From the NCBI GenBank assembly GCA_951406725.2, contig OX597819.1:127658001-127722000 (forward strand): a DNA stretch of 64,000 nucleotides, read 5' to 3'. Below, piece by piece: positions 1,893 through 62,825 of this stretch. Positions within the stretch are counted from its first letter, which is position 1; every line of letters starts with the position of its first letter. Below the pieces are notes generated by a model. That model ran no database searches and was not told the origin of the DNA. It saw only the letters and a program-made list of their open reading frames with translations. The translations under genes were made by a program, and so were the position numbers. Origin of the DNA: Octopus vulgaris. Lineage: Eukaryota.

Positions 1893-2485
1893 TTTGAGAT
1901 GGAGTATTTAATAAACGTACATTTAACTACCCTATGGAAATATGTATGTGCTTGCCATATATATCCATGTACCTGGGCGCTTCCCTGTGTATGTATATGT
2001 GTATAGCTGCCATGTATTTTTTGTTTGTGCTGTCCACATTTTTGTTGTGTACATCCATAACTTATGTTTGTTTTTCGCTATCCTATTAAAATATATACTG
2101 ATGGCAAATTTTCTTTCACTGAGAAAAATTTTGTAATGAAGTGTAAAATTTGTACTTAAATCAATTTCTGTACGCCACTGATATTTATTGAGCCAATGAA
2201 ATATTGTATCAGTGAACGCGATCTACTGGATATGACAGCCAAATACCACTCAAATCATACTCAACCATCTCCGGAAAGAAGATGACACGGATGGGTGTAA
2301 TCGTTGATACACTATTTGATGGAATGACCATGGTTAGGATGCCTCCGATCACACCTCTACTAAAACAAGGTTCGCATAGAGTTAGCAGCAAGGCCAGTGC
2401 CTCTTTACTTATTTCATCAACACTGAAGAGTTACAAATAATTAGCGGAAGACAATATTTGATGATAATGCAATATACATATATAT

Positions 2486-2565
<80 letters not shown>

Positions 2566-2582
2566 ACACACCCACACCCACA

Positions 2583-2629
<47 letters not shown>

Positions 2630-2636
2630 TTATACG

Positions 2637-3380
2637 TTGAGCAAGACCTTTACTGACATATACTTCGCCATCTACAAAGATGATTCCCTCGCCTTAACCG
2701 CAAATACCAATGAACCACTACAGGATCGGTTTAGGAAGGACATTATCCATTTGATGAAAACCCTCGGACTTAGTATAACTACAGACACCAACCTGACGGT
2801 TGTCAATTTCTTAGATGTATCCTTAAATCTAAATAAGAACATTTATAAGCCCTATAGGAAGCCCAATGATAGACTTAGTTATATTAATGTAGGTTCCTGC
2901 CAGCCCCCTATACTGTTTAAAAATTTAGTTAAAAACATTAGCAAGAGAATTTCTACCCTCTCCTCCGATAAGGACATTTTTATAGCGTTGCCCCAGCATA
3001 TAACAAGGCTCTAAGAGATAGTGGTTTTAGTGACGAAATAACCTATACACCTGCCACCAGCCCAACGATAACGAAGAGGAAACATAGGAATAGGAAAACC
3101 ATCTGGTTCACACCCCACTTCTCAGCCGAGGTGACCTTCAATATAGGCAAGTATTTCTTAGCACTGATAGATAGACATTTTTCCAGTCAACCATACTTAC
3201 AGAAATCTCTTCAATAGACACAACTTAAATATAAGTTTCAGCTCCACTATGAATTTTAAAAATACAATCGCGCACAACACATAAAAACCACAATACGAAA
3301 CTAGCTGTTCTTGCAAGGAAAAAAATTGTGCCCGCTAAATGGAGCTTGCATGTCCGAGACCATCATCTACGAAGCCACTA
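2637..3380 (+). pseudogene. Penelope-like element (Naiad-type) fragment: RT C-terminal/thumb, linker and start of GIY-YIG, frameshifted
   Basis: ORF 2637-3014 has YKDD (YxDD), VNFLDVSLNL and YKPYRKPN; after frameshifts it continues as RKTIWFTPHFS..NIGKYFLALIDRHF and CSCK..CPLNGAC..ETIIYEA, motifs typical of this PLE group. Confidence 0.85.
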
Positions 3381-4832: not shown

Positions 4833-5322
4833 TTCATCATCATTGTTCGACCGTGGTCGAGACAATGGAATTTACTATGTTACACCAGACTTCACGGTCC
4901 ATCGTAGCATTACGGAGGTCCTGTTGCTGGATGCCTATATCCCTGGAGATTACATCAGGGTAGGAGTGTGTGTGCCCTCTGGTATCGTCAGCAGATGGCT
5001 TCCAGAGGAGAAGAGTAGAAATTGCCTCGTCTTCAGCTCTACAACAATGTCCAGCAAACTGGACTCTTCTACCTTTCACAAGAGATGATACAGGTGGTAG
5101 TTACCCATATATTTGTACTTTGGTTGGATGACGCTTCCACGAGATATTTTGAGCTCTCATAAGGAAGCGAGTGTAAGTTCCATCCAACAGCTTCTCAAGC
5201 TTCTTTGATAACGTCCAGCTCTCTGAGCCATATAGTAGAATTGGTTCAACTGTGGCTTTGAAGATTTTAAGTTTGAAATCTCTATTTAGATTTGATGACC
5301 AAATCTTATGCATATCATTAGA
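4833..5322 (-). mobile_element. RTE-clade LINE 3' fragment (5'-truncated) with (TGA)n tail
   Basis: KIFKATVEPILLYGSESWTL..LDGTYTRFLMRAQNISWK, RRVQFAGHCCR..LLLWKP and MDREVW are RTE C-terminal motifs; ends in TGATGATGA. Confidence 0.85.
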
Positions 5323-6019
5323 TGTACCGAAATGAATTAATACATCCAAACTGACTTGGAAGTGTTGCGTGTAACGACTTATACTGTTGCTTAGCCTCAG
5401 GTCAACCCCAAGTTCGTTTGTGTAGATGGCTAACGTTGAAAATCGGCGAAATTCTATTATCGGTTGACGAAATTCCATCAGAACACCGGTAGATGGCACA
5501 ACGTATCAAGTGATTTCGCCGTATCGCGAAACATAAGCTGCAGCTGACAAAAGCAAATACCACATAGAAAATTAGTCAAATCGATATAGAATAATACTGG
5601 CCAAACAGCGAATAGTGTCGCGAAAATCTGGCGGGCTGCGTATACATTAGCTATTAGCCACAGAAGCAGCTTTTGTGACGAATATTAAGTTTTTTAAAGA
5701 ATATCAATTAACATGTTCAGCCTAACTTGGATGAATAACTTAAGATGCCTTAGACTGCTGTAAACGTCCCGTAAAATCATTTCGAGTGGACGACAGATGC
5801 TAAAAAGCATTGAAATTCTATCATCGGTTGAGGAAATTCCGTCTAAAGTGTTATAAAAAGAACATCCAAGTCATTCAATACAAAAGGTGCTCCTGTCGCT
5901 GATAGCAAAGTAATAATATCATCTGGCCTATATGAAATTATTGTGTGCAAGTCAAGAATTGTAAGGTAAAATATTATTTGCTTTATCACCGTGATTATTA
6001 TTAATGGTATTTAGATAAA

Positions 6020-8041: not shown

Positions 8042-8128
<87 letters not shown>

Positions 8129-8132
<4 letters not shown>

Positions 8133-8484
8133 TGCAGCGTGGAAGGTGTTTGTAAGCCATTTAAGAAACACACAAAAGCCGTTCGATTCACTTCAACATT
8201 TAAGTTTAATTTGTCAAAATATTTTCGGCGTTTTAAGACCGCGACCTGTTCACTGACAAAAATCCGTGCTGCATCTAAGCTTAGATGCAGCACGGATTTT
8301 TGTCAGTGAACAGGTCGCAGATTTTAGCGACGAAAATATTTTGACAAATTAAACTTAAATGTTGAAGTGAATCGAACGGCTTTTGTGTGTTTCTTAAATG
8401 GCTTACAAACACCTTCAACGCTGCAATTGTTTTCGTTTCAGCACACGATCTCAGATCAAATCACTTGCTATGCGAGTACATCTC

Positions 8485-8488
<4 letters not shown>
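8129..8488 (+). mobile_element. Fold-back element family F1: ~150 bp inverted arms plus ~59 bp unique tail, inserted in (TA)n
   Basis: 8129-8280 is the reverse complement of 8281-8429 (centre TCTAAGCTTAGA); homologous copies at 36543-36879 and 41242-41593. Confidence 0.9.
8299..8348 (+). ncRNA. Hammerhead-like motif with G3-C8 core (GTGAACA)
   Basis: TTTGTCA-GTGAACA-G-GTCGC(loop)GCGAC-GAAA-ATAT-TT-TGACAAA. Confidence 0.6.
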
Positions 8489-8522
<34 letters not shown>

Positions 8523-16998: not shown

Positions 16999-17043
16999 TT
17001 ACTTTTGACAATCTTTTTCCAAAGAGTGAAACCGGTAAAGTAA
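16999..17043 (+). ncRNA. Hammerhead-like motif with U3-A8 core (TTGACAA)
   Basis: TTACTT-TTGACAA-TCTTT(TTCC)AAAGA-GT-GAAA-CCGG-TA-AAGTAA; about 40 bp upstream of a (TA)n array. Confidence 0.55.
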
Positions 17044-19003: not shown

Positions 19004-19039
19004 ACAGGTTTTGTTGAATTTTCTGCTGCTTTAAATAAA

Positions 19040-19040
<1 letters not shown>
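19004..19040 (+). mobile_element. Solo arm of fold-back element family F3
   Basis: ACAGGTTTTGTTGAATTTTCTGCTGCTTTAAATAAAG matches 43605-43640; embedded in TA/CA repeats. Confidence 0.75.
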
Positions 19041-22440: not shown

Positions 22441-23449
22441 ATGAATCTGTGTGATGTTTCTGCATATAGACGACAGTTGAGCTTTAAAAAAATGCGATGA
22501 TTTTGATCCAGTTTATATGGGTTTCACAGTGTTAGTACAAGCAGTTTCAAATACTGATTTCCTGGTGTCTCCTTGAAGAAATAGACTGAAACCATGGTCT
22601 ACATTTATCTGTAGTTTATGCTGGATGGAAATTTGCCAGTATTCTGTACGTCTATGACATATATTCTTTGTTATTTCTTTGGCTAGTTGCAGAGTTTCGT
22701 TGCATGATTTTGTATACTGTGTTCCTGTCCAATGATCTGGGCTATTTCTGTTCAGTTTTCTGTGTTTCCCCGTAGAATATACTTTTCCAGAATGCCTATA
22801 CATTTTGTTGAATGTATAATTGTGGTGTCTATATTGGTGATGATGGCGATGCTGAATGATAAGAAATTTCATTCAGGAATTTTTTTTATCTTTGCTAAAA
22901 CTCTTGTGAGTTCCTAAAAATATTATTGCTTTGTTCGTTTATGTACGAATGTATTGCGACGAGGAAGATGCGGCTTCTACTGCTGCTACTACTGCTGCTG
23001 CTACTGCTTCTGCTGCTTCTACTGCTGCTTCTGCAGTTGATGAAGGTGTGTAGATAAATTTGGAGATTGCTTGCCATGTTATTGTAGTGTTGTGGTGATT
23101 CAATTCTTGAGATAAAAGCTGGGTAGTTTGGGAGTAGATTTGTTGGTATTGGAATTGTCAGGTATATGGACGTGTTGGTGTTGATTAGCGTTAGTTTTAT
23201 TGGGTCGCCTCTAGTGTTACTTGGATTCATTTTCCGCCAGGATATGTTGCGTGATTCACCAACGACTTCGCGCAGGAATGTTGAAACTCTTTTGTTAATG
23301 TGTAAACCCTGTTGGAACGTTTGAAGACATTGGTCGTAGTACATATATATTATGTTAGTGATCTCATGCGGTTGGCATCTACTTGAAATGACTGAATTTC
23401 TATGCACTGTAGAACCCAATGAATAATCGAAAGTTATTTCAGATACCTA

Positions 23450-24007
23450 GTTACGGAATGTACAGCTTTATGCCTCCAGGATATTAATAATCTGGAAGCC
23501 GTTCAGCGACGTGCAACCAAGAGAATACCCTCCATCAGGCAATTGCCATATTCTGAACGCATCACTTCCCTGGGCATGAATACATTGAAACTCCGACGTC
23601 TGGCAGCTGACTTGGCAGACACCCATAAAATTATTAACCATCTTACAAACAATAACTCTGAGCACCTTTTCAAACTCCACCTGTCTAACACACGTGGGCA
23701 TGTTTACAAAGTCAGAAAACGGCACAGCTCCCATGACTTTCGGAAACATTTTTTCACGCTAAGAGTTGCTGAAGCATGGAACAAACTGCCAGCATCAGTT
23801 GTTAGTTGTCGGAGCACTGCATCCTTCAAAACTTCCATGCTTCCTGAGATTCGCCAACACTACACCTGATTTTCTCCCCTCCATACACACACAAGCATGT
23901 ATCTGACTCGTACACCGTTCACTTTCCAGGCATTTGTACATTACTGCATATACTTTATACGCACTTTTGACAAGTTGTGGTGCACCTGAGCACTGTATAC
24001 AATAATT

Positions 24008-24792: not shown

Positions 24793-25101
24793 GGATCTTT
24801 TCGTTTTGACCGGCAGATTTTTAAAATAATTTCTTTGTAACTATGACAGCGTCAGAAAATGTTGTTGACAACAATCCGGCAGAAATTGAATTCACCTCAA
24901 TAGATGTCATTGATTGGTTGAAATTGCCGAAATGCAAGAAATTAAAGAAAAAATAGCTTACAAACTACAGAATTTTCTCAAGAAAGCCAAGAGAAAAAGA
25001 TGTTTTATAAACACATTCTACCAGTATACGAAGTTTAAAAGTGTTTAGTTACATTACAAAGAAATTATTTTTTGAATCTGCCGGTCAAAGCGAAAAGATC
25101 C
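24793..25101. mobile_element. MITE with ~50-bp TIRs starting GG and 8-bp TSD (Merlin- or hAT-like)
   Basis: GGATCTTTTCGTTTTGACCGGCAGATT and AATCTGCCGGTCAAAGCGAAAAGATCC; TSD GTCAACTT/GTCAACCT. Confidence 0.85.
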
Positions 25102-27005: not shown

Positions 27006-27067
27006 ATATATATATGTGTGTGTGTGTGTGTGTTTACATATATATATATATATATATACATAATATA

Positions 27068-27426
27068 CTAGCACTATGACCCGGCAACGCCGGGTCATAG
27101 TGCTAGTGCATGCATATACAGCTGCGTGCGTGCGCACATACACGCCAGTCCAAATCTCCGACCAATCACATACAGCTGGCTGGCTTTCAATTGGCGTATC
27201 AGGTTTCGGGCATTTTGATTGGGTTTTGGATAGAAAATTCACAAAAAAGTCACCTCTATTGATTTTTAAATGGCTTTGCGGGGTGACTGGGGAAATGTAA
27301 AGATGTGTACGACCACCCTTGGACGATTTTGAATGACCATAGAAAGTGCGAGCCTTCTAACTGAAAAATTGTGGATTTGTATAAAGGATACACACAGACA
27401 GACATTTTGCCGTTTATATATATAGA
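27068..27426 (-). mobile_element. Non-autonomous Helitron with perfect terminal palindrome
   Basis: Minus strand starts 5'-TCTATATATATAAACGG and ends hairpin-CTAG-3', between A and T; 19-bp-arm palindrome at 27067-27107. Confidence 0.8.
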
Positions 27427-29075: not shown

Positions 29076-29114
29076 TATATAATTGAAACAAAGTAAAAGA
29101 ATAAAAGAATATAT

Positions 29115-29330
29115 ATTCTTTTATTCTTTTACTTGTTTCAATCATTTGAGTGCGGCCATACCGGGGCACCGCCTCTAGTCGAGCAAATCGACTCCAGAAC
29201 TTATTCTTTGTAAGCCTAGTACTAATTCTATCAGTCTCTTTTGCGGAACCGCTAAGTTACAGGGACATAAACACACCAGCATCGGTTGTCAAGCGATGTT
29301 GGAGGGACCAGCACAGAGACACACATATAT
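29115..29330 (-). mobile_element. SINE family B, 3' half
   Basis: Homology to family B tail. Confidence 0.8.
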
Positions 29331-30183: not shown

Positions 30184-30488
30184 CGTGATCACGTGACCGA
30201 CCAGGCTATCAGAATTTGCTACACATCGCTGGTCACAATGTGCTTCGCATTGTTTTAGCCTTCAAATGACGCCATCCCACTGGCTAAGCGGGAAGGCCAA
30301 CACAAGAAAGACTGGGAGAAAGTTGTGGCGAAAGAATACAGCAGGGGTCGCCACCACCCCCAGCCGGAGCCGCGTGGAGCTTTAGGTGTTTTTCGCTCAG
30401 TAAACACTCACAACGCCGGGTCTGGGAATCGAAACCGCGATCCTACGACCGCGAGTCCGCTGCCCTAACCACTGGGCCATTGCGCCTC

Positions 30489-31003: not shown

Positions 31004-31177
31004 GGCGCAGGAGTGGCTGTGTGGTAAGTAGCTTGCTTACCAACCACATGGTTCCTAGTTCAATCTCAATGCGTAGCGCCATGGGCAAGTGTCTTCTACT
31101 ATAGCCTCGGGCCGACCAAAGCCTTGTGAGTGGATTTGGTAGACGAAAACTGAAAGAAGCCTGTCGTGTATATGTGT

Positions 31178-36542: not shown

Positions 36543-36879
36543 ACGGAGATGTACTTGCATAGCGAGTTACTTGATCTGAGATCGTGTGCTGGAACGAAAT
36601 CAATTGAAGCGTGGAAGGTGTTTATAAGCCATTTAAGAAACACACAAAATCCGTTATATTCACTTCAACATTTAAATTTAATTTGACAAAATGTTTTCGT
36701 CGCTTTGAGACTGCGACCTGTTCACTGACAAAGATGCAGCACGGAATTTTGTCAGTGAACAGGTCGCAGTCTCAAAGCGACAAAAATATTTTGACAAATT
36801 AAATTTAAATGTTGAAGTGAATCTAACGGATTTTGTGTGTTTCTTAAATGGCTTATAAACACCTTCCACGCTTCAATTG
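36543..36879 (-). mobile_element. Fold-back element family F1, copy 2 (opposite orientation)
   Basis: Tail 36543-36600, arms 36601-36733 and 36747-36879; carries the G3-C8 hammerhead-like motif. Confidence 0.9.
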
Positions 36880-37392
36880 TTCTGTTTTATATGTTTCTCT
36901 ACAAATGCATGTATTCTTTTTTTATAGGGTTTTCAAAGGTATTTCGCTTGGATTACATGAAAACGAAATTTATTGTACATAACAGTATAGTACTTGACTC
37001 TGTCACATTTCAATACTTATTATAACAATCCTGATCTTATGATGAAACATTCATAAGCAGTTCCACAGTCGGAACTCAAAGGAACACACTACTTCAAGAG
37101 CAAATAACCTCAGAATATAATCAGGGAGCATTCACCTTGAATGATGAATTGCTACAATGTAGTGAGATGGTCACTAAAAAACATGGTTGGAGTGCATTGA
37201 AAAGTATTGCATCCAGTGAGATAGATATTTAATGTAAACTGTATTATAATGAGAGCCACTAATAATACGTGCTTAGGCAGATTTTTATAACGTACTTTGT
37301 GTCTCAACGGCAACAAAGCTATTAGTAGCTTTTATTTTAATACGGTGTAATACAGTGTGGCGCTCGATTAGAAATAATTAAAAAAATACACA

Positions 37393-38252
37393 TTAGGTAC
37401 AGGACAACAGCAACGAGCTAAAACACGGAAACACACGAGACAAAATACCAAAAAATACACAATATGAACAGGAAATCAACAACGAGTGAAAAATACGTAA
37501 ACATAGATCGAGAGACAAGAACGGGACAAAATACCAAAAGTCTAACTTTTCCTCAGTTGTCGACTGTTTCTTACTCCCAATTTCGAGCATACAGAAAAAT
37601 TTAAAGTATAAAATTTGAGGAGAGTTAGCGCTTCGAAGGAACAAACAGCAACAAAGAGGATGTACAGTGTAAACAATCGACGAAGACAAACATTAAGAGC
37701 CGTTAGGCCAAGCCGCATTGTAAGGGGTAACGCCTGGGAGAAATTTTGAAAGGATATAGAATAAACAGAAGAAAAGAAAATAGAAGAAAAAGCATTCCTG
37801 GAGGCGAGGGAAATGCCGTCCAGCTAGAGGGACGCCACGTCTGGAAAAGACAGAGGCGAGAGAAATGGCCTCAATCAAGTGTGAACGAACAGGCAGAGGG
37901 AAAGGGGGACAAGAGAGAGTATGAAGAAAAGAAACAAAGGAAGTGTGGAGAAGGGAGAAGGAACGAAAGGTAGTAGGGAGTGGAAGAAAGACAGACAGGT
38001 GACAGCAAAGAAAGAGGGGGAGAAACGGAAAATAAAGAGGATTATAATGGGCCAGAGAGAAAGGAAGAAAACAGAGTGTGGCGTCGCAGAAATTATAAAT
38101 AAATGTAAGAACTTATAGGGGAAAAGGCTGCATGGCGTTCGATTATAAATAAATAAAAGATACACATTAAGTACAGGACATCACCAACGAGCGAAAAACA
38201 CGTAAACTCACGAAAGATAAGTACAGGACAAAATACCAAAAAATACACAATA
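37393..38252 (-). mobile_element. Non-coding element with diverged direct terminal repeats (pLTR-like)
   Basis: 37393-37462 resembles 38167-38252 (TTA.GTACAGGACA..CAACGAGC..GACAAAATACCAAAAAATACACAATA). Confidence 0.5.
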
Positions 38253-38259
38253 AAAACAT

Positions 38260-38610
38260 ACCGTTCCATCCTTGAGGAAAGTTCTGTCGAGGAAAACCAC
38301 CACAGAGAACCCCCGTGGGGAGCACACTCACCAACTACACCATGCTCCAGGGACTATGTAGTTTACAAGGTAGCCTGCAATCAATGTGGAGCATCCTTCA
38401 TAGGGAGCACCCCTAGAAAACTACACATCCGTATAAAGAAGCACATGCAAACAGACACTTCGAAGAAGAAACACCTCAAGAAGTGCCAAACCGGGAACGT
38501 CAAGGTTTTCATGAAGACCACTCAAAGCAACAGGAGCAATATCAGGATTAAGGAAACCCTCCTGATAAACAAATTGAAACCGGTCATTAACAACAGGAAG
38601 AAATTACACG
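38260..38610 (+). pseudogene. Penelope-like GIY-YIG endonuclease fragment (third type)
   Basis: Frame of ORF 38445 extended upstream: CSRDYVVYKVACNQCGASFIGSTPRKLHIRIKKH..H..C..IKETLLINKLKPVINNR. Confidence 0.8.
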
Positions 38611-39171
38611 AAGCAGACTACCGTCCGCGCATGTCACCTTCTCAACATATGAAGCTATTAGTAGCACTTAAAGAGATGTATTGTGCCCTTTAATAGGCCT
38701 TCTGTGAAATTATCATATAGCTGCTATCTCAATTTGAAGAGTATCATTACACAAGGTCAATACTAAGAGCCTAAATCCAGTTGTAAGTATTGCGACCCAT
38801 GTGTTATTAAATTTGTCGTATATGACGCTGAAATTACTGCATCGCTAAATGATAATGCAATAACTGGGAAGACCTATATTGGATTATGTGAAGGAGAATT
38901 TAAAAATCGCTACGCCAATGGCATATCCTCTTTCGGACTTAAGCTACTAAGTTGAGTTGCCACGTATGGAGTTTGGAAGCAAACGAAACGCGCGTATAAT
39001 TAATGTGTAAAATAATTGAGAAATCCACACCTTATGTGAACGTATCAAATAAATGTAGGCTATGTCTAGCTGAAAGAGCTCCGATCCTTTTCAGATCCAA
39101 TACCTCTAATTCTCAACTGAACTCTCGGCTGCAATTTTCAGCGATTGCAGACATGTGTAAAATATACTATA

Positions 39172-39554: not shown

Positions 39555-39696
39555 TACTTTGAAGAATTGGGAAATTCCCCCTATATCTGATTAACTTGTT
39601 GCTCTCTTTCAGCCCTATAATTTAAGGCCTACATACTGCTTTCTCAGCTTTTTTGCGTTTCTTCACTTTTTTTTTAGTTCGTTATGATATGTGGTT

Positions 39697-39753
39697 CGTG
39701 CCTGATGAATACGTCTGAGATATTTCTCAACATATGAAACTATGTATTATGTC
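39697..39753 (+). ncRNA. Hammerhead ribozyme in PLE 3' UTR, degenerate stem I
   Basis: CTGATGA-ATACGTCTGAGA(TATT)TCTCAACATAT-GAAAC-TAT-GTA. Confidence 0.6.
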
Positions 39754-39831
39754 CTTTAAATAAATAATATTTATCTCTCACAAGATGGAGTGCTTTTTTT
39801 GTTGACCTTTCAATCACAGAACAGTACATTA

Positions 39832-41241: not shown

Positions 41242-41593
41242 AAACAATTGCAGCGTGGAAGGTTTTTTATAAGCCATTTAAGAAACACACAAAAACCGTT
41301 AGATTCACTTCAACATTTAAATTTAATTTGTCAAAATATTTTCGTCGGCCCTCACAGATATACATATATATGTACACACACACACATGTGTAGCACGAAG
41401 TTTTGTCAGTGAACAGGTCGCGGTCTCAAAGCGACGAAAATATTTTGACAAATTAAATTTAAATGTTGAAGTGAATCTAACGGTTTTTTGTGTGTTTCTT
41501 AAATGGTTTATAAACACCTTCCACGCTGCAATTGTTTTCGTTCCAGCACACGTTCTCAGATCAAGTCACTCGCTATGCAAGTACATCTCCGTA
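41242..41593 (+). mobile_element. Fold-back element family F1, copy 3 (short arm and microsatellite spacer)
   Basis: Left arm 41242-41347, spacer, sense copy 41391-41593; hammerhead-like motif at 41402-41452. Confidence 0.9.
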
Positions 41594-41605
41594 ATATATA
41601 TATAT

Positions 41606-42139
41606 ATTAAACTGCGGTTGCAGAACAAACAAATACAGGATGATCCACGTAACATTTCATATCTCGAACATTTAATCATCACATAATACTTTTTCCTTTC
41701 ACATAGAATATACATGTATAACATCACAGAAGATGCAACATAATTCATCAGTACAAGCGTATAAGAAAATACAAGAAAAATGCATGAATACAGTTCATCT
41801 CGGTTAAAAGTTAACGATTAATATATGTATAATCGCTAAAGTATTAATCGTTAACTTTTAACCGAGATGAACTGTATTCACGCATTTTTCTTGTATTTTC
41901 TTATACGCTTGTACTGATGAATTGTGTTGCATCTTCTGTGATGTTATACATGTATACTCTATGTGAAAGAAAAAGAATTATGTGATGATTAAATGTTCGA
42001 GATATGAAATGTTACGTGGATCACCCTGTATTTGTTTGTTCTGCAACCACAGTTTAATATATTTGTCTCATTTAATTGAGCACTTCTATAGCAGTCCTAT
42101 TAAACATTTGTTCCTGATAAGAAACAATTACTGTATTAT

Positions 42140-42141
<2 letters not shown>
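41606..42141 (+). mobile_element. Fold-back element family F2: ~217-bp arms, 18-bp spacer, ~80-bp tail, in (TA)n
   Basis: 41606-41823 is the reverse complement of 41842-42058 with about 7 differences counted by eye. Confidence 0.9.
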
Positions 42142-42185
<44 letters not shown>

Positions 42186-42643
42186 CCATGTATGTAAATA
42201 TACATAAAATGACCCCTTTTGGTCATGAATGACCATGGGACTGTGACTAGAAAGTTCCCCACCGAGGCACAAGTCCGGTCAAATTTATTTATGGAAGGCC
42301 AGCAATCCTCCCTGCATACCGACCTTCCCTTTCCGTACCACCTGTATAATCGAATACAGAGTAGGCCGAGAAGTAGTCATCGAAGACATTCGTATCAGGT
42401 ATTTAAAATGAGTTTATACGTATAATTATGAACATATAAATGAATATACACATACAATATCCATATACATCAACCGGGTTACCTATCTGTGCAATACCCT
42501 AGAACTATTATACAGACAGAAATCCACACTGTTTACGTACGTCAAGCTTCATTCACAAGTCTTGTACGAGACTTGTCCGAGGTGCTATGAAGCTGCGGTA
42601 GATCTGCATCTATCACTTTGGTCGGTATTATATATTTGAATCT

Positions 42644-43024
42644 GAGGCGCAATGGCCCAGTGGTTAGGGCAGCGGACTCGCGGTCGTAGGATCGCGGTTT
42701 CGATTCCCAGACCAGGCGTTGTGAGTGTTTATTGAGCGAAAGCACCTAAAAGCTCCACGATGCTCCGACAGGGGGTGGTAGTGAATCCTGCTGTACTCTT
42801 TCACCGCAACTTTCTCTCACTCTTACTTCCTGTTTCTGTTGTACCTGTATTTCAAAGGGCCGGCCTTGTCACTCTCTGTGTCACGCTGAATATCCCCGAG
42901 AACTACGTTAAGGGTACACGTGTCTGTGGAGTGCTCAGCCACTTACACGTTAATTTCACGTGCAAGCTGTTCCGTTGATCGGATCAACCGGAACCCTCGT
43001 CGTCGTAACCGACGGAGTGCTTCC
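42644..43024 (+). mobile_element. SINE family D, full length
   Basis: tRNA-like head; TSD ATATTTGAATCT at 42632-42643 and 43025-43036; near-identical to 60788-61170. Confidence 0.9.
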
Positions 43025-43382
43025 ATATTTGAATCTCATAGTTATGTCTGTGACCATAATTAGTTGGGTGAAATTATGAAAAAATTGAAAAAAGCTGATT
43101 GAAAATGAAATATTAATGATTTCGTATTTCAAATAGAATTCAAAAGTTAAACACCTTTAAACAATTTACTTTTAAACAAAAACCAAAACGAACAGCACTT
43201 TTGTTACAACCTAGTATATCAAGAGTTTGTGTTGTATAGAATTTGATATACCTGTGTTTGTGTATGTTGTTTGCTATGAGGCTCTGGCTTGAAGAATTTT
43301 AATCGAGCGGATGGACCTCAGTACTTATGTATTTCTTATCAGGCTGATACTTATTTTAATGGCGTGACGCAAAGGCAGCACA

Positions 43383-43460
<78 letters not shown>

Positions 43461-43464
<4 letters not shown>

Positions 43465-43640
43465 GGAGTAAACACATAAATGTGAAACAAGGCGGAGAAA
43501 AGAGTACTCAAATACCAGTGGTAGAGTAATAATATGCTTTATTTAAAGCAGCAGAAAATTCAACAAAACCTGTAACTCTGAGTTTCACGTTCCCGTTCGT
43601 CGGCCAGGTTTTGTTGAATTTTCTGCTGCTTTAAATAAAG
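43461..43640 (-). mobile_element. Fold-back element family F3 with hammerhead in the loop, in (TA)n
   Basis: 36-bp arms 43537-43572 and 43605-43640; tail 43461-43536. Confidence 0.85.
43569..43608 (-). ncRNA. Hammerhead ribozyme, U4C variant (CCGACGA)
   Basis: Minus strand CCTGG-CCGACGA-ACG(GGAA)CGT-GAAA-CTCAGAG-TT-ACAGG. Confidence 0.7.
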
Positions 43641-43787
43641 TATATATATATATATATATATATAATAAATATTAGGGAATAAATCCAAATTTACAGGGAA
43701 AAAAATCAGATTTAGGATTAAATCCAATTTTATAGTAAAATATTATATAATATTATTGTTTTGCAAAATAGTGGTTTTGTCTCTAAT

Positions 43788-43829
<42 letters not shown>

Positions 43830-43832
<3 letters not shown>

Positions 43833-44528
43833 CAATTAAGGACAACTACTTAATAAGGAAAACTTAAGAAGAAATTGTCAGGTAGATAGCGTAAAAACCT
43901 CATAAGAGAAAAAATTTCGAAAATAATTATTTCTTATTGAACATATTAATTTATATATAGAGGGCATTATACATACATGCCAGAAGGCATTATACATACA
44001 TGCCAAACGCTAAGAGGGACAATTAGTCATTTCTACCAAAAATATTACTAATCCCACCGAATGCAATTTTTCAAAGTAAGACATTTAAAAAATATAGACC
44101 TGTATCACAGTGATTTCATACTTACGTACTCATCAGCAGGCCTGAATGCATTATAAATAAACAACGACCCTGCCCCGCTTAAGTCGATCAGCTAACTGTT
44201 CAACATCAACGAAGCACATGGGTGAGTTTACATATATTACATCCGGTCAAATGGCAAACTTTTACGAATTGCATTTCGGGAGAGGAAAAGTTTTTTCGGA
44301 ATAAAAATTTAGCAATTAAGGACAACTACTTAATAAGGAAAACTTAAGAAGAAATTGTCAAATCACTGTGATACAGGTCTATATTTTTTAAATGTCTTAC
44401 TTTGAAAAATTGCATTCGGTGGGATTAGTAATATTTTTGGTAGAAATGACTAATTGTCCCTCTTAGCGTTTGGCATGTATGTATAATGCCTTCTGGCATG
44501 TATGTATAATGCCCTCTATATATAAATT

Positions 44529-44530
<2 letters not shown>
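43830..44530 (-). mobile_element. PLE pLTR-type element family F4: direct repeat plus 5' inverted arm, in (TA)n
   Basis: Direct repeat 43830-43880 and 44310-44360; inverted repeat 43948-44115 and 44360-44528. Confidence 0.9.
44096..44143 (-). ncRNA. Type I hammerhead ribozyme, canonical core
   Basis: Minus strand AGGCCTG-CTGATGA-GTAC(GTAA)GTAT-GAAA-TCACTGTGA-TA-CAGGTCT: 7-bp stem I, GNRA-capped stem II, near-palindromic stem III. Confidence 0.85.
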
Positions 44531-44562
<32 letters not shown>

Positions 44563-44564
44563 GA

Positions 44565-44700
44565 TGGTCATTTTTCAGTTTCCACTCACAAAGTTTTGAT
44601 CAGCCCGAGGCCTTAGCAGAAAACACTCACCCAGGGTGCCACGCTGTGGAAGTGAACCTGAAATCATGTGGTTGGGAAACAAACTTCTTACTTGCAGAGT
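44565..44700 (-). mobile_element. SINE family B, 5' half, diverged
   Basis: Homology to family B head. Confidence 0.65.
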
Positions 44701-50059: not shown

Positions 50060-50153
<94 letters not shown>

Positions 50154-50230
50154 AAATATAAGCAAGATTCTGTCAACTGAAATAGGAGCAGAATCACTGT
50201 AAATGTACTCGATCTGGTGAGAGATAAATT

Positions 50231-50517
50231 TTATTTAATGAACACAATATATATTTTATGTACTACTATTAGTCTCATGTGCTAGGAACAAACCAAATAG
50301 TGTTTTTTAACACAAATGGTGTCCTAGCACAATCACTAAACACTGCCCACATATCATAACGAGCTAAAAATGAGCGACCCATTTTATAGTTCGTTATGCC
50401 GTGTGGGCAGTGTCTGACGATTGTGCAAGAACACCAGCATGTTAAAAAACACAGTTTGGCATGTTCTCAGCACATGAAACTAATAGTAGCACACAAAAAC
50501 ATATATTCAGTTTATTA

Positions 50518-50522
<5 letters not shown>
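50231..50522. mobile_element. Old fold-back MITE (imperfect palindrome along its whole length)
   Basis: CTACTATTAGT/ACTAATAGTAG, TGTTTTTTAACA/TGTTAAAAAACA, ACACTGCCCACA/TGTGGGCAGTGT and CATAACGA/TCGTTATG pair symmetrically. Confidence 0.8.
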
Positions 50523-60787: not shown

Positions 60788-61170
60788 GGAGGCGCAATGG
60801 CCCAGTGGTTAGGGCAGCGGACTCGCGGTCATAAGATCGCGGTTTCGATTCCCAGACCGGGCGTTGTGAGTGTTTATTGAGCGAAAACACCTTAGAGCTC
60901 CACGAGGCTCCGGCAGGGGTGGTGGTGATCCCTGCTGTACTCTTTCACCACAACTTTCTCTCACTCTTACTTCCTGTTTCTGTTGTACCTGTATTTCAAG
61001 GGGCCGGCCTTGTCACTCTCTGTGTCACGCTGAATATCCCCGAGAACTACGTTAAGGGTACATGTGTCTGTGGAGTGCTCAGCCACTTACACGTTAATTT
61101 CACGAGCAGGCTGTTCCGTTGATTCGGATCAACCGGAACCCTCGTCGTAGTAACCGACGGAGTGCTTCCA
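60788..61170 (+). mobile_element. SINE family D, full length
   Basis: Near-identical to 42644-43024. Confidence 0.9.
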
Positions 61171-61401
61171 CATGTATGTGTGTGTGTGTGTGTGCGTGTC
61201 TATGTGCGGGAATGGCCTTGACTGCGATGGGATTAAACTCTTAGTTTTAACCATTCCTCAAAATGTGTGGCCTTGTGCCAATTAGAAATAATCATAATTT
61301 TTTTGCTATTACCACAATCAACGTCATTGGTTTGCTTCCTTCTACTTCCCGCGTCTCTCCTTTTCTCTCTCTTTCCGCTTCTGGAAGTATTCTCTCTCTC
61401 G

Positions 61402-62249: not shown

Positions 62250-62825
62250 ACCCGTGGCTGTGTAGTAAGCGGTTTGCTTCTCATCAGTTGTATGATTTAG
62301 GGTTCAGTCCCACTGCGTGGCACCCCTTGGCCGGATGTTTTCTGCTATAGCCTCGGGCCGACCAAAACCTTGTGAATGATCTTGGTTGATGGAAACTGAA
62401 AGAAACCTGTCGTGGGGTATCTGCTCCTTCCTCCCCTTTGGATTTGTTCCTCTTTCCGACGAGAATCTATGCTCGAAACGTCATTTCCACGTCTATTTTT
62501 CCCCTTAAAGCTTTCACTAAGTGTCAGTCTGATATATTTACAGAGTTCGACCACTTGACTTTTGTTGGTTTTCCCTGTTCTAAATTTTCAATTTATCTTT
62601 GTGTGTGTGTGCGTGTGTGTGTGTGTGTTTGTCTTCCAACACCACTTGACGATCGGCGTTGGCGTGCTTACGTCACCATAACCTTGCGGTTAGGCCAAAG
62701 AAACCGAGAGAATATGTACCAGGTTTAGTAAAACCGTGAGTACTAGGGTCAATTCGCTTGACTAAAATTCTTCAGCGCGGTGCCCCAGCATGGTCGCAAT
62801 CTATTTGAAAGTCTAAACGAAAGAT
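62250..62825 (+). mobile_element. SINE family B with a ~190-bp insert in its central linker
   Basis: Head 62250-62412, insert to about 62600, tail to about 62825. Confidence 0.7.

Follow-up and report, generated by a model that had tools for sequence, protein, structure and literature searches.

Fold-back elements with Penelope-like insertion anatomy and predicted hammerhead motifs in a microsatellite-rich stretch of Octopus vulgaris contig OX597819.1

Introduction

Insertions of Penelope-like elements (PLEs) carry a characteristic signature: a head-to-head inverted, 5'-truncated copy that forms an inverted pseudo-long-terminal repeat (pLTR), an optional tail, a hammerhead motif near the 3' end and a bias towards TA-rich targets (PMC8557442, Fig. 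2 legend; PMC3846280; PMC2377424; PMC8969392). The origin of the inversions and tails and the role of the hammerhead are named as open questions in PMC8557442 and PMC11167929. Here we describe four families of fold-back element, F1–F4, that lie at positions 41242–44530 of a 64-kb stretch of Octopus vulgaris contig OX597819.1 (the window; ∼35% GC, rich in microsatellites and animal-genome-like) and that have the same anatomy as these published insertions. Their origin is very probably of the PLE type, and they are likely to be new non-autonomous members that act like PLE insertions, rather than autonomous PLEs, retrozymes or miniature inverted-repeat transposable elements (MITEs). Elements of this kind are easily annotated as MITEs or as short interspersed elements (SINEs), and F1 alone may hold 10^4–10^5 copies. 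No description of these particular families was found in the literature searched, PMC13282606 included, repeat libraries lying outside that search.

Several described systems invite comparison. In Anolis Poseidon PAc, two internal starts flank the tail, both tail borders serving as reverse-transcription starts in vitro, both target strands are cut and extended, and the targets are AT-rich (PMC11167929), much as we propose for F1–F4; we found no connection drawn there between the inverted arm and the proximal start. The minimal PLE hammerheads of PMC4209133 are of type I and, like that of F1, have a palindromic helix III, an extra nucleotide that sits after position 9 and before 10.1 and a G10.1-C11.1 pair; there, as here, motif pairs occur on opposite strands 100–700 bp apart. 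The non-LTR retrozymes of animals (PMC7229834; bioRxiv 10.64898/2026.07.22.740005) are likewise small, non-coding, equipped with a type I hammerhead and likely moved by PLEs. They are defined by tandem arrays and circular RNA, whereas F1–F4 are dispersed single units with inverted arms.

Anatomy of the four families

Self-comparison of the window, which is the basis for the arm calls in Table 1, shows that F1–F4 each comprise an inverted arm set head to head with a sense copy, followed by an unpaired tail and lying mostly flush with (TA)n. The initial annotation of this interval had described four unrelated fold-backs of this composition, and that description is confirmed both by the self-comparison and by six pairwise alignments, in which 15–452 of 500 shuffles score as well; on this measure F1–F4 are mutually unrelated families. 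The predicted hammerhead motifs described below place the sense strand on plus for F1 and on minus for F3 and F4, correcting the earlier reading of the latter two. The strand of F2 is taken from its tail only, since F2 has no more than half a hammerhead core.

Table 1. Positions of the fold-back elements and associated features in the window
Feature	Position	Strand	Remarks
F1a inverted arm	41242..41347	-	outer end 3 nt beyond CAATTG; 96% identity to 41432-41537
F1a inner filler, ~40 nt	41348..41388		microsatellite-like (TA)/(CA); private to F1a
F1a sense copy	41389..41593	+	family 5' end ~6 nt upstream of 41392
F1 predicted hammerhead, type I	41402..41452	+	predicted cut after 41445
F1 unpaired 3' tail, 58 nt	41536..41593	+	
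(TA)7 linker between F1a and F2	41594..41607		common to both
F2 inverted arm, 216 nt	41608..41823	-	94-97% identity to 41842-42056, spacer 18 nt
F2 18-nt spacer, sense copy and tail	41824..42141	+	tail 42057-42141, about 85 nt; half hammerhead core only
F3 sense copy	43462..43604	-	core 43603-43574, arm 43573-43537, tail 43536-43462 (75 nt)
F3 inverted arm, 36 nt	43605..43640	+	36/36 identical to 43537-43572; inner end 1 nt from predicted cut, lengthens stem I
F4 sense copy, 531 nt	43830..44360	-	480-nt unit plus 51-nt terminal direct repeat; tail 43942-43830 (113 nt)
F4 predicted hammerhead, canonical core	44096..44143	-	predicted cut after 44103
F4 inverted arm, 174 nt	44360..44533	+	99.4% identity to 43943-44116; runs 14 nt 5' of predicted cut
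F1b, complete	8127..8487	+	perfect central palindrome; in (TA)n
F1c	36543..36883	-	inverted arm complete, sense copy clipped at its 5' end; flanks AT-rich but not microsatellite
Tail-less F3 fragment, 37 nt	19004..19040	+	followed by (TA)n
F6, fifth fold-back family	50150..50521	-	tail, (TA)n, long-stem-II hammerhead; arms about 80% alike
F5, 127-nt AT-rich piece	43665..43792		(TA)n tract on either side; lacks a relative in the window
Frameshifted RT-thumb-linker / endonuclease remnants	2616-3379 and 38671-39089		match ~710-aa RT-EN proteins

A partial direct repeat is present in F4 alone. Its two 51-nt copies, at the start of the sense copy (44360–44310) and the end of the tail (43880–43830), are identical at 51/51 positions and 480 nt apart, as had been noted before, and they recall the 34-bp repeat of D. 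virilis Penelope, where the tail is repeated at the start of the unit.

No open reading frame (ORF) of at least 120 amino acids occurs in 41242–44530, and the sense-strand translations of F1–F4 hold no ORF with reverse transcriptase (RT) and GIY-YIG domains. Judged by these translations, F1–F4 are short non-coding elements and not autonomous, endonuclease-bearing (EN+) PLEs. They differ from published PLEs in this lack of an ORF and in the size of their units (about 145–530 nt), and F1 differs further in its defined 5' end and very high copy number.

MITEs share the fold-back look, but F1–F4 differ from them in having no terminal inverted repeats. Comparison of the terminal 30 nt with the reverse complement of the opposite terminal 30 gives 9, 5, 8 and 9 matches for F1, F2, F3 and F4, respectively, and 5–11 of 30 positions match in the terminal-repeat test overall; from this low complementarity we conclude that the termini are not inverted repeats. 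With the predicted hammerheads and the published PLE anatomy, this makes it likely that the elements are PLE-type retro-products that mimic MITEs, as the initial annotation had suggested. A long-read palindrome artefact was also considered as the source of the fold-backs and was rejected in view of the 1–6% arm divergence, the asymmetry of the elements and the presence of similar joints in several runs.

Junctions, ends and abundance of the F1 family

The three F1 copies of the window have a common outer end and different inner junctions, as had been claimed. Relative to the motif CAATTG, the inverted arm ends at +1 in F1b, about +2 in F1c and +3 in F1a, thus within 3 nt in 3/3 copies. The inner junction is a perfect palindrome in F1b, a 40-nt filler in F1a and an offset sense start in F1c, where the inverted arm is complete and the sense copy starts about 17 nt in, which appears as a 13-nt spacer. 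Over the outer 100 nt the two arms of a copy are 96, 98 and 96% identical, compared with 91–94% for the 12 between-copy pairs, and all five informative columns among the 103 shared by the six arms pair the arms of the same copy.

Public contigs mapped on 41385–41832, a segment made up of the F1 sense copy and tail plus the F2 inverted arm, extend this view to other loci. They come from four of 24 runs (X1 and X2 from organism A, X7 from B and X4 from C), and the statements below draw on 15 of 99 joints, 24 of 1167 loose ends and 32 of ∼72,000 contigs, some loci recurring among runs. Eight opposite-strand joints are present among those 15, at eight different coordinate pairs and each at a depth of 8–332, against a family depth of 10^5–10^6, which corresponds to one to few loci. 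Because these joints are distinct and of low depth, the inner junctions of F1 are not common to most copies; taken with the same-copy pairing of the arms, their variety argues that the F1 palindrome is not inherited as one unit.

Support from the contigs for the outer end is weaker than for the inner junctions. It consists of long F1 contigs that stop at 41531–41537 (13 of the 31 listed; 8 stop at the tail end) and of a 30–40% drop in summed contig depth across 41535 in three of the four runs. At the other end of the unit, the loose-end consensus upstream of 41392 is resolved for only ∼6 nt in all four runs and no copy in the window is longer, which gives F1 a defined 5' end and puts its unit at ∼210 nt. 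In X1, 214 contigs cross this 5' end into unrelated AT-rich DNA, compared with 11 in the inversion joints listed (41392–41402); the inversion therefore seems optional, although the 214:11 ratio is blurred by fillers, unlisted joints and the poor assembly of hairpins. Dividing the F1 depth by the single-contig depth gives ∼6–9 x 10^4 arm copies, to an order of magnitude only, and we put the copy number of F1 at roughly 10^4–10^5. F2 is about 100-fold rarer in the contigs. F1 is carried by related species too. The 5' end of F1 (8283–8298) and its tail end (8472–8489) are complementary over two alternative stretches of 5–6 nt, by which the ends of an F1 RNA could pair.

Predicted hammerhead motifs and the cut site

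A scan that accepted any Watson-Crick pair at positions 3 and 8 found four hammerhead cores in the 64 kb, all of them in F1 or F4, compared with one match in 15 shuffled control windows. A relaxed scan, run without a shuffle control, adds F3, F6 and a U3-A8 motif at 17005. F1, F3 and F4 carry predicted hammerhead ribozyme motifs, then, which the initial annotation had overlooked; among PLEs, such a motif within the repeat is absent in Naiads. Neither Rfam at gathering thresholds nor ARAGORN gave a match in the window; minimal hammerheads and the SINE head score below their thresholds.

The F1 motif combines a G3-C8 core and an extra nucleotide after A9 with a 7-bp stem I, a 5-bp stem II and a palindromic stem III. 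It is found, G3-C8 pair and extra nucleotide included, in 3/3 sense copies and in 0/100 shuffles, the pattern used for this test having been derived from the F1 copies themselves; the exact pattern has no match in the metagenome contigs. In this copy of F3, the core at 43603–43574 has U4C, and the base of stem I is mismatched. Among the contigs, G-to-C differences occur at one place each in X2, X4 and X7, namely 41642 in F2 (X1 has one more), so that in these three runs G3 (41409) is not reverted to C in 1% or more of the mapped depth, and the common F1 variant A41448G would keep stem I through a U-G pair.

Natural hammerheads with U3-A8 are described in PMC3088659 and PMC4209133, and the covariant U3-A8 pair of minimal PLE hammerheads recurs here at 17005. 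A G3-C8 pair is described as an engineered, partly active form (PMC11167929, PMC3884650) and was not found in the main text of PMC4209133, in which respect F1 is unlike the minimal PLE hammerheads. We found the G3-C8 core in print only as this engineered mutant; supplements, Repbase and Dfam may hold natural cases. A core of this kind, if fixed in nature, would add to the natural hammerhead variants described so far; it escapes standard CUGANGA descriptors.

Several breakpoints lie at or near the predicted cut. The tail-less F3 fragment at 19004–19040 matches, at 37/37 positions, the stretch that opens with the base directly following the predicted F3 cut and closes at the fixed arm end. It shares its final base with the F3 inverted arm, giving a fixed outer end in 2/2 F3 copies, and shows that the F3 tail, present at 43462–43536, is optional. 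The F3 inverted arm itself ends 1 nt short of the predicted cut. PMC11167929 found no RNA ends at the ribozyme cut for PAc, whereas here one F3 fragment begins exactly at the predicted cut. In F1, one end falls no more than 5 nt from the cut in four of the eight listed inversion joints (P 0.002–0.007, or 0.07–0.13 if three near-identical joints are merged, in what is a selected set). Against a general cut-site rule, the arms of F1a, F1b, F1c, F4 and F6, that is five of the six arms with a motif, cross the predicted cut; the F3 junction is also accounted for by microhomology in stem I, and cleavage is dispensable in vitro for the Anolis PLE (PMC11167929). No stable stem-loop is predicted in the tail of F1 or F3.

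These observations allow a bolder suggestion, which we regard as unlikely: that F1, at about 210 nt the size of a SINE, travels as a PLE passenger in tens of thousands of copies with a working natural G3-C8 hammerhead, and that in these families ribozyme-cleaved RNA does serve as a template in vivo, some arms and solo fragments (F3 at 19004–19040 and 43605–43640 among them) running from a fixed priming site to the cut. Were this so, millions of junctions would preserve, across the genome, a fossil record both of PLE twin priming and of what the hammerhead does.

Elsewhere in the window, a U3-A8 hammerhead-like motif (17005–17037) has AATAAA after it and (TA)n some 45 nt further along; the segment 16990–17085 is probably another PLE 3' end.

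Origin of the inverted arm

We propose that RNA of F1–F4 would be bound in trans by the protein of an autonomous PLE, for which the Hydra clade is the best candidate, and that the PLE reverse transcriptase-endonuclease would make a nick in each strand of the target, a (TA)n tract or AT-rich DNA. Priming from the two 3' ends of the target would then take place at two family-specific sites, the end of the tail and the fixed border between arm and tail, the former yielding the tail-bearing copy and the latter a tail-less arm. Both cDNAs, drawn from one source locus and extending toward the RNA 5' end, would be end-joined head to head through 0–4 nt of microhomology or filler, which would create a new inner junction at each insertion. 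Use of a single site would leave a simple copy with or without a tail, and new insertions would keep or expand the (TA)n, drawing later insertions beside old ones.

We give this scheme as a whole a little better than an even chance of being correct. Fixed outer ends, variable inner ends and the solo copy that lacks a tail all agree with it, as do the longer inverted arm of F1c and the start sites mapped in Anolis. Where the arms of F2 and F4 reach their outer ends, the next bases of the sense sequence are TA-like and could anneal with target DNA. A related process is known from L1 twin priming, where the inversion likewise arises from a second target primer. There, however, each cDNA is made from a different part of the RNA and the position of the second site is variable, whereas in F1–F4 the cDNAs would overlap and the site is fixed. 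The initial annotation had held that the inversion is remade at each insertion from a fixed second priming site. Its first part gains support from the private arm variants and unshared junctions; the priming site itself we infer, in agreement with the in vitro result of PMC11167929, and homogenisation of the arms could also give rise to the private variants. The idea of regeneration is largely present already in the PLE literature, and the architecture is the known PLE signature.

A number of observations count against the scheme or weaken the evidence for it. The tails, at 58–113 nt, exceed the published 30–40 nt. With tens of thousands of copies, it should be rare for two RNAs bound independently to share a source locus, and the scheme needs either few active loci or one RNA that is read twice. 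A search of both strands of F2 found no complete hammerhead, and folds of the isolated motifs are weak relative to shuffles (z = -2.3 for F1, -1.3 for F4 and -0.3 for F3), although weak isolated folds are expected since minimal hammerheads are thought to act as dimers (PMC4209133). A CpG column outside the 103 shared columns groups the F1b sense arm with F1c, and the F1b arms (8280–8431 and 8128–8279) differ at seven places within 13 columns, a stretch that surrounds stem II and loop II of the hammerhead, and twice in the outer 100 nt; conversion, homogenisation or repair after insertion may thus have acted. There is no depth drop at 41535 in run X1, and the F1 outer end is not among the 24 of 1167 loose ends. 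Finally, within the window no sequence link joins F1–F4 to any PLE ORF.

A possible, though doubtful, alternative retains the PLE-type elements and lets the first cDNA fold back, or switch template, at a short inverted repeat, copying continuing to a fixed stop or to an endonuclease cut at the arm/tail border; self-priming with endonuclease resolution has been proposed (PMC3846280, PMC8557442). On this view no second RNA would be needed for the shared private variants, and the perfect palindrome at the centre of F1b and the F3 junction inside hammerhead stem I would also be explained. The F1c inverted arm, however, reaches ∼17 nt further 5' than its sense copy, which a simple cDNA fold-back cannot produce and which would require a later deletion; moreover, the tail-less solo copy at 19004–19040 ends at the same base, and both tail borders of the Anolis PLE are starts of reverse transcription in vitro (PMC11167929). 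An improbable reading takes the elements as monomers of non-LTR retrozymes derived from circular RNA, the 51-nt redundancy of F4 being a more-than-unit copy of a 480-nt circle, and could be combined with priming at two sites or with fold-back of the cDNA. The unit and terminal repeat of F4 suit it, as does the argument that retrozymes are non-autonomous PLE derivatives (bioRxiv 10.64898/2026.07.22.740005). On the other hand, F1–F4 stand as single units, the window holding no tandem array of two or more hammerhead-bearing units; the 15 of 99 joints include no F1 3'-to-5' tandem joint; and D. virilis Penelope repeats its tail at both ends without a known circle.

Inheritance of the fold-back from a few palindromic master loci, with centres altered by later deletions and arms homogenised by conversion, is more improbable still. 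Long palindromes are unstable, and the F1a filler and the patchy differences between the F1b arms resemble repair after insertion. Yet the same asymmetry recurs in four or five unrelated families, the arms of F4 are 99.4% identical around a strongly asymmetric junction, and many contigs pass the F1 5' end into unrelated DNA. Least credible, and already largely refuted, is an origin as elements that duplicate a TA target, whether MITEs or fold-back DNA transposons, or as Helitron-type elements with subterminal inverted repeats: the long inverted arms, the TA flanks and a 5–6 nt inverted match between the F1 ends recall such elements, but the termini have no inverted repeats, three of the four families have predicted hammerheads, and solo sense fragments and 5' truncation are seen. 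Very abundant small families make both PLE questions, the origin of inversions and tails and the role of the hammerhead, testable through breakpoint counts.

Penelope-like coding remnants

The frameshifted remnants in Table 1 match RT-EN proteins of ∼710 amino acids (47 matches of 292 candidates; also by tblastn); the three inspected carry RWK, DKT or DKS, CxCX5C and CxxC/CxH motifs. These motifs mark the Hydra clade, PLEs of aquatic invertebrates that bear hammerheads and target (TA)n (PMC8557442, section 11). The assignment rests on motifs read by eye, because Pfam at E 0.01 gave no family in the three homologues. No sequence tying F1–F4 to the two remnants was found, which leaves a Hydra-clade PLE as a candidate partner only. 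A 'Naiad-like' label for 2445–3014 was dropped.

The ORF at 38157–38693 contains a GIY-YIG domain (Pfam E 9.5e-6); among longer proteins, a search with part of it (38307–38627) gave no relative. The 3' end of this ORF is similar to F6 (0/500 shuffles as good) and the fragment 39660–39830 (1/500), F6 and this fragment being related to each other; within the window, only F6 matches the end of the GIY-YIG ORF. The ORF pieces at 23423–23869 and 5101–5505 look by eye like the C-terminal part of the RT of a long interspersed element (LINE), with Pfam matches below threshold only.

Target sites and neighbouring repeats

A (TA)5+ tract occurs no more than 4 nt from seven of the eight termini in the interval, compared with 4% of non-tract positions that have one within 15 nt. 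The 5' flank of F1a is (GATA)n, and F1c has no (TA)5+ tract within 1.3 kb. Between their flanks F1a and F1c share only 4–6 nt of AT-rich sequence; any fixed target-site duplication would be masked by (TA)n. The common (TA)n linkers fit insertion beside older elements. In the clustering of the elements the initial annotation had seen serial insertion at one TA hotspot. A single hotspot is weakly supported: the elements fall into two groups, F1a-F2 and F3-F5-F4, which 1.25 kb of other DNA separates. The presence of four of seven fold-backs within 2.84 kb has P = 0.010 under uniform placement and P = 0.056 if the 108 TA tracts are taken as targets, the interval having been picked post hoc in both cases.

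The DNA between the two groups includes a SINE-like dispersed repeat at 42644–43028. Its copies here and at 60789–61173 and 30304–30488 are 90–95% alike, with a tRNA-like head recognised by eye, and by these features the family is likely to be a SINE. Another dispersed repeat (44581–44691, 31024–31134 and 62292–62378; 77–80% alike) stands directly after the (TA)n of F4. F5, which holds a 31-nt imperfect direct repeat and a 16-nt palindrome, was considered as a relative of the F4 tail and rejected, 435 and 126 of 500 shuffles being equally good. Other local inverted repeats lie outside F1–F6: two 48-nt arms 213 nt apart at 24793–25101, a 41-nt palindrome at 27067–27107 and a 67-nt palindrome at 29079–29145.

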